Made by a program: the position numbers and the translations under genes. Below are positions 1 through 1,231 of a stretch of 64,000 bases of DNA, piece by piece. The notes under the pieces were generated by a model, which saw only the letters and a list, made by a program, of their open reading frames with translations, had not been told where the DNA came from and did no database searches. The stretch is taken from positions 96,001-160,000 of the IMG/VR virus record IMGVR_UViG_3300020204_000007; one strand, written 5' to 3'. Position 1 is the stretch's first letter, and every line of letters begins with the position of its first letter. The DNA comes from a virus.

Positions 1-183
1 GAACTAAAAACAACTATTATCATGGAGCATCGTGACCTCTATAATCATGTGTCAGAAAAAATGACGTTAGAAACATATGGCATAACTATTTCTGATTTGT
101 TACGCTCTTTTGAGCAGGCTCTTCGTGGCGCAGGATTCCAATTTAAAGGCGTACTGGGGATAATTGATGAAGAACAAATATAG
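1..183 (+). CDS. hypothetical protein, 5'-truncated by window edge
   Basis: Frame 1 open from base 1 (ELKTTIIMEHRDLYNH...LRGAGFQFKGVLGIIDEEQI) to TAG at 181-183. Confidence 0.6.
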   Translation, partial: ELKTTIIMEHRDLYNHVSEKMTLETYGITISDLLRSFEQALRGAGFQFKGVLGIIDEEQI

Positions 184-1231
184 CGCACAAATGGATTGGG
201 ATTGGACTATAGATCTTTCTTTAGGTTCTCCGTATGTGTTTAAAGATTATTTACAAAATTATTTAAATGATGCAACTCCATCCCGCGCTATCAAGCTTCA
301 TGAATTAATGCCATACAATAAATTAGGCGTTTTTCCAGAGCTAGAAGAACAGATTTTAAGATTACACAGAAAATATCATCCTAATTTCATTAATAAAAAT
401 ACAAAAATTGTAGTATCCAACGGCGCTACTCATGCAATAATGGCGTTATTTCATTTTGCCTCTAAACAATATTTACCAATGCATGTTCCAGCGCCATTCT
501 GGTTTAGATTACCAGATATGGCAACCATGCAAGATCTAATTCTCACAAAAGAAATTCATGAAGAAATCACATCAGCAACTGCATTATTAACAGTTCCTAA
601 TAATCCAGATGGAAAGTTGCAAGAATTAACGGATAAATCAAAGTATAAATCTGTTTGGTATGACTGTGTTTATAACTGGCCGTGGTATTTTAAAAACAAA
701 AACGACTGGCCACACCAAGCTATTCCAGATCTACCAGAAGTGGCTATATTTAGTTTATCAAAATTCAGCGGTCATTGCGGAACACGTATTGGTTGGATGG
801 TAGTTAATGATCCTCAGCTTGCAAACTTTTTAGAAAATTATATTGAATATGACACAAGCGGAGTTTCTGTAGAAGCACAACTAAGAGCAGCCTCGGTTAT
901 TAAAACGTTTGAAGATAATAATCTAGGAGATGTTTATAAACATATTGTTGATAAAAGAAAAACAGAACTATCTACGGTACTCAAAAAAATTCAAGAAGTG
1001 CATGGTCAAGAATTTAATATCAAAAATTTTTCCATTGAAAATGGCATGTTTGCATGGATTAAAGACGAATTAAACTGTTTTGTGTTAAATGATATTGCAG
1101 TAATGCCTGGTTGGAAATGCGGTGCGGATAATAAATACGTTCGCGTAAATTTATGCGCAGAGCCATGCGATTGGGACGAAATGGTGTATAGGCTTAATAA
1201 CTATATTGTTCGACAGTGTGATAATCTATGA
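167..1231 (+). CDS. PLP-dependent aminotransferase fold-type I, alliinase/TAA1-like
   Basis: Motifs VSNGAT, PNNPDG, YDCVYNWP, FSLSKFSGHCGTRIGW (PLP lysine), GVSVEAQLR, YVRVNL; start could be 167 or 190. Confidence 0.85.
   Translation: MKNKYSAQMDWDWTIDLSLGSPYVFKDYLQNYLNDATPSRAIKLHELMPYNKLGVFPELEEQILRLHRKYHPNFINKNTKIVVSNGATHAIMALFHFASKQYLPMHVPAPFWFRLPDMATMQDLILTKEIHEEITSATALLTVPNNPDGKLQELTDKSKYKSVWYDCVYNWPWYFKNKNDWPHQAIPDLPEVAIFSLSKFSGHCGTRIGWMVVNDPQLANFLENYIEYDTSGVSVEAQLRAASVIKTFEDNNLGDVYKHIVDKRKTELSTVLKKIQEVHGQEFNIKNFSIENGMFAWIKDELNCFVLNDIAVMPGWKCGADNKYVRVNLCAEPCDWDEMVYRLNNYIVRQCDNL

Follow-up and report, generated by a model that had tools for sequence, protein, structure and literature searches.

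Introduction

In recent aminotransferase surveys, the Alliinase_C/tryptophan-aminotransferase group of pyridoxal 5'-phosphate (PLP) enzymes is essentially confined to plants and some protists (PMC11214133, PMC9309667). Its described members include the TAA1/TAR enzymes of Arabidopsis (PDB: 3bwn, 3bwo; PF04864), with TAA1 a promiscuous aromatic amino-acid:pyruvate aminotransferase (PMC9309667) whose PLP lysine is Lys217 (PMC9231625), and the alliinases of Allium (PDB: 1lk9, 2hor/2hox). The characterised PLP enzymes of phage DNA hypermodification, M6 gp52 (Pseudomonas phage) and ViI gp226 (Salmonella phage), are fold-type II, tryptophan-synthase-beta-like decarboxylases (PMC8989533). Here we describe a gene for a TAA1/alliinase-family enzyme at the beginning of a 64,000-nucleotide stretch of viral DNA, which was analysed whole and is called the window below (bases 96,001–160,000 of the 169,059-bp IMG/VR virus record IMGVR_UViG_3300020204_000007). 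CheckV puts the completeness of this record at 100%, in keeping with a preliminary description of the window, which had called the gene phage-encoded.

The gene is a single open frame (window 164–1231, + strand) with a TTG at 164 and an ATG at 167. A public gene call, P0001, starts at the ATG and is 100% identical over its 354 aa. The coordinates in the preliminary description (167–1231) are exact, and every string it quoted is found in the translation: PNNPDG, YDCVYNWPWY, FSLSKFSGHCGTRIGWMVVND, GVSVEAQLR, FAWI, and G..CGADNKYVRVNL.

167–1231, + strand, including the stop codon: coding sequence of a PLP-dependent enzyme of the TAA1/alliinase family (Pfam Alliinase_C), from open reading frame, Pfam, PDB, and fold

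Family assignment by profile, sequence, and fold

The profile comparison proposed in the preliminary description separates two candidate families clearly: Alliinase_C matches over profile positions 2–361 of 363 (E 9.1e-33, 114.1 bits, cut-off 22), and Aminotran_1_2 trails it by 84 bits (E 2.9e-7, 30.4 bits). The best NCBIfam aminotransferase model gives 43.5 bits against a cut-off of 350 (cut-offs range from 290 to 650 overall), and in PHROGs the only match is an unnamed family (phrog_5879, 2e-14). When PDB sequences were searched with phmmer, TAA1 and alliinase were the sole strong matches: TAA1 (3bwn) over residues 13–346 at 1.5e-20 and the alliinases 2hor/1lk9 at 7e-17, with the next chain at 0.06. 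An AlphaFold2 model built from a 30-sequence alignment (pLDDT 89.3, pTM 0.89) retrieved TAA1 chains from the PDB at Foldseek ranks 1–10 (1e-23, TM 0.76–0.79) and alliinase at rank 13 (2e-20); class I aminotransferases came at 8e-16 or weaker, some seven orders of magnitude behind TAA1.

The family signatures are present in the expected order, namely (S/T)PNNP(D/E)G, D..Y.WP.Y, SK.(T/S)GH.G.R.GW, GVS.E.Q, and a C-terminal VR. TAA1/TAR is the best match by sequence and fold, with the PLP lysine aligned, the EGF-like domain absent in both, and the signatures PNNPDG, D..Y.WP.Y, SK.(T/S)GH.G.RIGW, GVS.E.Q.R, and VR.(S/N) in common. The phage protein differs in its length (354 aa versus 391–450 aa), in lacking the plant N-terminal extension, in its position in a separate, phage-borne part of the tree, and in having no auxin-pathway partner present; it starts about 15 residues ahead of the catalytic domain. 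With the Allium alliinases it shares the Pfam family, the fold, and the catalytic residues, whereas the strong match covers only the PLP-binding core (residues 141–248) and Pfam detects no EGF-like N-terminal domain (PF04863), so that by its domains the enzyme is not an alliinase in the strict sense. Class I aminotransferases (E. coli YbdL methionine aminotransferase, PDB: 1u08; kynurenine and prephenate aminotransferases) have the same fold-type I architecture and general PLP-binding residues and reach about 1e-15 in Foldseek, but their sequence likeness is marginal (PDB E of at least 0.06; NCBIfam scores an order of magnitude below the cut-offs) and they lack the SK.TGH.G.RIGW and D..Y.WP.Y signatures.

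Catalytic residues

Four motifs of the translation carry the residues of interest:

596–613, + strand: PNNPDG motif, P144–G149; N146 is invariant in alignment A1
662–682, + strand: D166-x-x-Y169-x-W171-P motif (DCVYNWP), aligning with HDFAYYWP of TAA1
752–799, + strand: SLSK199FSGHCGTR207IGW signature, aligned to TAA1 FTFSKITGHAGSRIGW
1142–1144, + strand: codon of R326 within YVRVNL, aligning with HVRVSM of TAA1 and YVRLSL of alliinase

Alignment A1 consists of 27 phage-type sequences (this enzyme and 26 others) and three plant TARs, across which Y50, N146, D166, Y169, W171, K199, G202, H203, R207, G209, W210, and R326 are invariant. K199 (nucleotides 761–763) aligns with TAA1 Lys217 and is the predicted Schiff-base lysine. 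D166 is expected to pair with the PLP pyridine nitrogen and R207 to bind the phosphate, while R326, by analogy with class I aminotransferase and alliinase structures, is the C-terminal Arg expected to bind the substrate α-carboxylate. N146 we take to be the Asn that contacts the PLP 3'-OH, as in class I aminotransferase folds, and W171 in DCVYNWP is the family-specific Trp. Judged from the alignment, all PLP-binding and catalytic residues are present.

Because the evidence from profile, PDB, fold, and alignment agrees, together with the alignment of K199 with TAA1 Lys217, the enzyme is intact and truly belongs to the TAA1/alliinase family; we judge it nearly certain that this phage-borne family member is functional. 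The preliminary description placed it nearer to TAA1/alliinase than to generic class I/II aminotransferases, and the profile, the search of PDB sequences, the predicted fold, and the tree all bear this out; neither the best profile nor the tree placement lies among HisC/AspC-type enzymes.

Distribution and selection

The enzyme belongs to a large and compact branch of about 300–355 aa, without the N-terminal extension and the EGF-like domain. A scan of 1.84 billion representatives (50% identity) returned 777 proteins at E ≤ 1e-3, 432 of them at ≤ 1e-10, and most of the best 150 matches listed are 300–360 aa long. In a set of 5.8 billion proteins, named matches carry either generic JGI names or are plant TARs at 26–31% identity and at most 95% coverage. 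An exact-peptide scan of IMG/VR with the single protein gave no match, which made an alignment-based scan necessary; the latter found a homologue at 50 viral loci. Neighbouring genes at these loci encode primase-helicase, ClpP, ribonucleotide reductase (RNR), a RecA-like protein, terminase, portal, M15 peptidase, PD-(D/E)XK nuclease, and chaperonin, and the loci are therefore real phages of several types. Of the 239 members of an ESM Atlas cluster, 99% are Viruses.

Among 185,579 prokaryote species genomes, a motif scan whose patterns recover about 56% of known members gave one match, on an 8.8-kb contig of a Bdellovibrionales metagenome-assembled genome (MAG; L053:1142–2182, + strand). An adjacent 476-aa open reading frame (ORF) has no match among GenBank phages, and the contig may be cellular or a binned phage fragment. 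Across 401 genomes of the same phylum, this MAG alone scores 281 bits, and the runner-up (62 bits) is an ordinary aminotransferase. The branch is almost entirely phage-borne. A comparison of the orthologues on L003 and L004, two close relatives, gave dN/dS 0.038 at dS 0.79, and the gene is under purifying selection.

The preliminary description held the family to be mainly known from eukaryotes. This is true of the literature cited above and not of the databases, which contain hundreds of phage-borne homologues, so the gene is no rare oddity. Full-text searches combining alliinase with phage or viral auxiliary metabolism returned nothing relevant; since the literature also treats the group as eukaryotic, the phage branch appears to be undescribed in print, although its sequences are public under generic names.

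Two further observations concern protein length. Longer proteins of 427–447 aa (P0028, P0030, and the one on L032, an 11.5-kb IMG/VR contig) form a well-supported phage-type sub-branch. Fused forms were found in plant gene models only and in no phage-type sequence, with the range of 622–822 aa outside the coverage, and so offer no clue to the chemistry.

Phylogenetic analysis

The phylogeny proposed in the preliminary description was inferred in two ways, and both trees place the enzyme with the TAA/alliinase family, apart from class I aminotransferases. FastTree, run on 232 sequences and rooted with class I aminotransferases of a bacterial genome, revealed a eukaryotic clade of 33 rows (support 83), which includes plants, Parmales, Ectocarpus, and a green alga, as sister to a phage-type clade of 196 rows (support 97). 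The enzyme lies in the phage-type part of the tree, outside the land-plant TAA1/TAR1/TAR2 clade. One outgroup sequence, L055, was dropped, having joined a single phage-type sequence in FastTree on a branch of length 2.6.

IQ-TREE under LG+C20 (PMSF) with 81 representatives, again rooted on class I aminotransferases, placed a single eukaryotic clade (87% SH-aLRT) inside the phage-type diversity, with backbone support of 82–91%. Two class I outgroup rows are separated by a 100% supported branch of length 3.2; a third and very long outgroup row, L058, falls within the family, probably by long-branch attraction. A tree constrained to phage monophyly was 64 log-likelihood units worse and was not rejected (AU p = 0.128, LG+F+G4). 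With an outgroup branch as long as 3.2, long-branch attraction is a real risk, and a search seeded with a plant TAR returned plants only and no new outgroups. That the eukaryotic TAA/alliinase enzymes, including the first auxin-synthesis enzyme of plants, branch from within the phage-borne group is on this evidence a tentative and rather doubtful reading.

Search for partner genes

Local gene clustering over 51 loci revealed no conserved metabolic partner, merely lineage-specific synteny with replication and structural genes. When all proteins of 10 genomes (GC 34–58%, 79–169 kb) were clustered, no family other than the PLP enzyme occurred in every genome. Next in frequency come RecA, an SLT-containing protein, Pol III alpha, and dUTPase, followed in fewer genomes by endonuclease VII, proteases, dNMP kinase, and exonuclease; the genome-wide search across the 10 genomes thus yielded generic phage functions and no metabolic partner. 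Fe-S scaffold genes rarely accompany the enzyme (NifU_N in 0 of 50 records; NifU in 2 of 50, i.e. one besides this genome).

Because co-occurrence is rare, no partner is shared, and the known hypermodification PLP enzymes have another fold type, the enzyme is a stand-alone function: the family is a known one, of which this is a compact form, borne by phages and lacking any pathway partner.

Proposed function and alternatives

The explanation we favour, with a probability of roughly 55%, is a functional phage-borne family enzyme that acts alone as a TAA1-type transaminase on free amino acids. The reading as a transaminase rests on TAA1, which all measures put nearest to the enzyme among characterised relatives; transamination of free amino acids as the chemistry, taken by itself and by analogy, we hold to be an evenly balanced proposition. 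The substrates of the enzyme would be free small molecules in the infected cell, on which it would act without a partner gene product and, as its relatives do, probably as a homodimer. Lys199 would carry PLP as an internal aldimine, with Asp166, Asn146, Tyr169, and Arg207 holding the cofactor. An L-amino acid, probably a hydrophobic or aromatic one, would displace Lys199 and form an external aldimine with PLP while Arg326 binds its carboxylate, and the amino group would pass to PLP and, through pyridoxamine phosphate (PMP), to a 2-oxo acid such as pyruvate. Such a reaction would alter the pools of amino acids and keto acids in the infected host. What the model and alignments above provide for this scheme are the fold, the cofactor lysine, and the residues that bind PLP and the carboxylate; the amino-transfer steps we infer from TAA1.

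Several points weigh against this explanation. The activity of the phage branch is a prediction from sequence and modelled fold, and fold and residues also fit alliinase-type β-elimination, so that transaminase and lyase are not separable by sequence alone. Identity to TAA1 is only 24–30%, hence substrate specificity is not transferable. The advantage of such a reaction to the phage is not evident from gene context. A tblastn search of 50,697 GenBank phage records with this protein and two other members found no family member; the sole matches, at about 25% identity and 6e-5, were to unannotated Listeria and faecal contigs. Lastly, the genome encodes DNA-modification genes, so a lineage-specific link to these is possible.

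The main rival, which we regard as unlikely, is a C-S or β-lyase like alliinase or the MalY/PatB-type cystathionine β-lyases. Such an enzyme would convert an S-substituted cysteine or its sulfoxide, cystine, or cystathionine into pyruvate, ammonia, and a sulfur product; the phage might in this way gain sulfur or pyruvate, for example, or remove a metabolite of the host. Alliinases are the second-best relatives by sequence and fold, the catalytic residues common to lyase and transaminase members are all present, and a small Nfu-type gene (PF01106, window 30,207–30,401) lies in the same genome. However, TAA1 outscores alliinase over the full length, the alliinase match being mainly to the core noted above, the phage protein lacks the EGF-like N-terminal domain found in true alliinases, and the Fe-S scaffold genes do not accompany the enzyme. 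Lyase chemistry is possible but not indicated.

A lineage-specific part in DNA hypermodification is less probable still. Here an aGPT-Pplase-like transferase would attach an amino acid to 5-hmdU-derived DNA, and the enzyme would either tailor that amino acid or produce the donor, an amino acid or amine, for the transfer. A Pfam sweep of genome ORFs of at least 110 aa identified the following genes:

Genome 79,776–80,699 (L066:5575–6495), outside the window, − strand: aGPT-Pplase-like protein P0332 (Pfam PF18723 HMUDK_hel, 1.6e-24)
Window 19,262–19,906, + strand: Mom-family protein (Pfam PF25680, 1.6e-33), from the family of the adenine-modifying enzyme of phage Mu
Window 53,162–53,869, + strand: ThyA-family protein (Pfam)
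Window 36,950–37,411, − strand: a further gene of the thymidine-related set

The genome also encodes dUTPase, dCMP deaminase, a TMP-kinase-like protein, and a 2OG-Fe(II) oxygenase; none of its genes was recognised as a P-loop 5-HMUDK kinase. Matches to P0332 in tblastn lie in M6/PaMx11-type, Sonora, and SH-Ab 15599 phages with modified thymidine, and one is annotated as alpha-glutamyl/putrescinyl thymine pyrophosphorylase. This gene set suggests that the phage makes 5-hmdU-derived modified thymidine, and the Mom-family gene may provide a second DNA-modification function. With aGPT-Pplase-like, Mom, ThyA, and related genes present, the phage probably modifies its DNA, likely at both thymidine and adenine.

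In favour of an involvement of the PLP enzyme, the two closest relatives (G002, G003) retain both the PLP gene and the aGPT-Pplase-like gene, and thymidine adducts are tailored by PLP enzymes in known pathways (PMC8989533). Against it, the genes are not clustered: the aGPT-Pplase-like gene lies 16 kb upstream of the enzyme gene, the Mom gene 18 kb downstream, and the ThyA gene 52 kb downstream. Among 49 other enzyme-carrying viral records, PF18723 occurs in 2 (closest kin only), ThyA in 3, and Mom above cut-off in none, and the first two are each found in 0 of 12 complete genomes. M6 gp52 and ViI gp226 resemble the enzyme in being phage-encoded PLP enzymes, and an aGPT-Pplase-like gene of the same pathway type occurs in this genome; they differ in that their models are based on tryptophan synthase beta (fold type II) and place the lysine close to the N-terminus (PMC8989533), and in that their genes cluster with kinase and transferase genes. 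The present enzyme has fold type I, and its gene stands apart from genes of that kind and is seldom found in the same genome; by these comparative measures it does not belong with the PLP tailoring enzymes of thymidine hypermodification. As co-occurrence is close to zero and conservation extends to no other metabolic partner, a general role is not supported, and neither, as a function of the family, is the step in base hypermodification suggested in the preliminary description; such a role could at most be specific to this lineage.

An ordinary class I aminotransferase (HisC/AspC/CobD type) with only superficial TAA1 likeness would agree with the weak class I and Aminotran_1_2 scores given above and with the JGI name "aspartate/methionine/tyrosine aminotransferase" of some homologues, but these matches are all far under the curated cut-offs, and Pfam, NCBIfam, the PDB sequence search (where E-values lie 19 orders of magnitude apart), Foldseek, and the tree, with its two class I sequences split off, refute it, leaving it an exceedingly small likelihood. 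A decaying or functionless passenger gene acquired by chance is just as improbable: it would explain the lack of a known function and of a conserved partner gene, but the frame is intact, the catalytic residues are complete, dN/dS is low, the gene is kept across phage lineages of about 80–170 kb and 34–58% GC, and the local GC resembles that of flanking low-GC stretches.

Genomic setting and other features

The enzyme gene lies in a long + strand array of small genes, mostly without annotation, with an RNase H gene just upstream. Its start overlaps the stop codon (181–183) of a small upstream ORF (22–183), which suggests co-translation within the array, and a putative ribosome-binding site precedes the ATG:

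155–159, + strand: GGGG(A) Shine-Dalgarno-like run, 8–12 nt 5' of the ATG at 167 (read from the sequence)

A promoter and terminator scan gave no signal exceeding shuffled expectation. Genome GC is 36%, and the first 2 kb of the window, with the enzyme gene inside, have 32%, similar to flanking low-GC stretches. Portal and helicase indicate distant kinship with Myxococcus phage Mx1 and SPO1-like myoviruses; four portal relatives were found, two of them short fragments.

A GC-rich island at window 5800–10,200 (about 60% GC at 6200–7400 versus 33% around it) contains small ORFs without Pfam matches, separated by repeated modules of 90–120 nt with three elements: a G/C hairpin with a T-run (at 7292, 7768, 8254, and 8867), a perfect palindrome TAACAGAGCTCTGTTA (its core ACAGAGCTCTGT, exact or slightly varied, recurs at about ten sites, 7328–10,124), and a TTTAAGTTTACC...GGTACCGATAAA box in both orientations. 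An 18-nt tandem array occupies window 5844–6117. Judged from its sequence, the island resembles a row of gene cassettes, each under its own control. Other features of the genome are:

Window 30,189–30,422, + strand: small Nfu/NifU C-terminal-domain protein (PF01106, 2.9e-16), common to one other enzyme-carrying record
Window 43,435–43,510, + strand: single tRNA-Ile, anticodon TAT (reads AUA), by ARAGORN and Rfam
Window 17,151–17,900, + strand: ClpP-like protease gene, one of two
L066:10,532–11,107, − strand: the second ClpP-like protease gene

Outside the window the genome encodes Pol III alpha with a PHP domain, a Cpn60-type chaperonin, an IMPDH/GMP-reductase-like enzyme, and both RNR subunits.

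Implications

The branch points to an unstudied and widely distributed phage auxiliary enzyme. That selection has kept it in phages differing widely in size and GC implies that it is of general use during infection. In the debate over where plant auxin synthesis came from, the outgroups have been bacterial and archaeal "homologues" with an identity of only about 25% (E about 1e-8; PMC4754409). The phage branch provides much closer non-eukaryotic relatives of the eukaryotic enzymes, which makes the rooting and the question of origin directly testable. Should the eukaryotic enzymes indeed branch from within the phage-borne group, the non-eukaryotic reservoir of the family, and possibly its source, would be bacteriophages and not bacteria.

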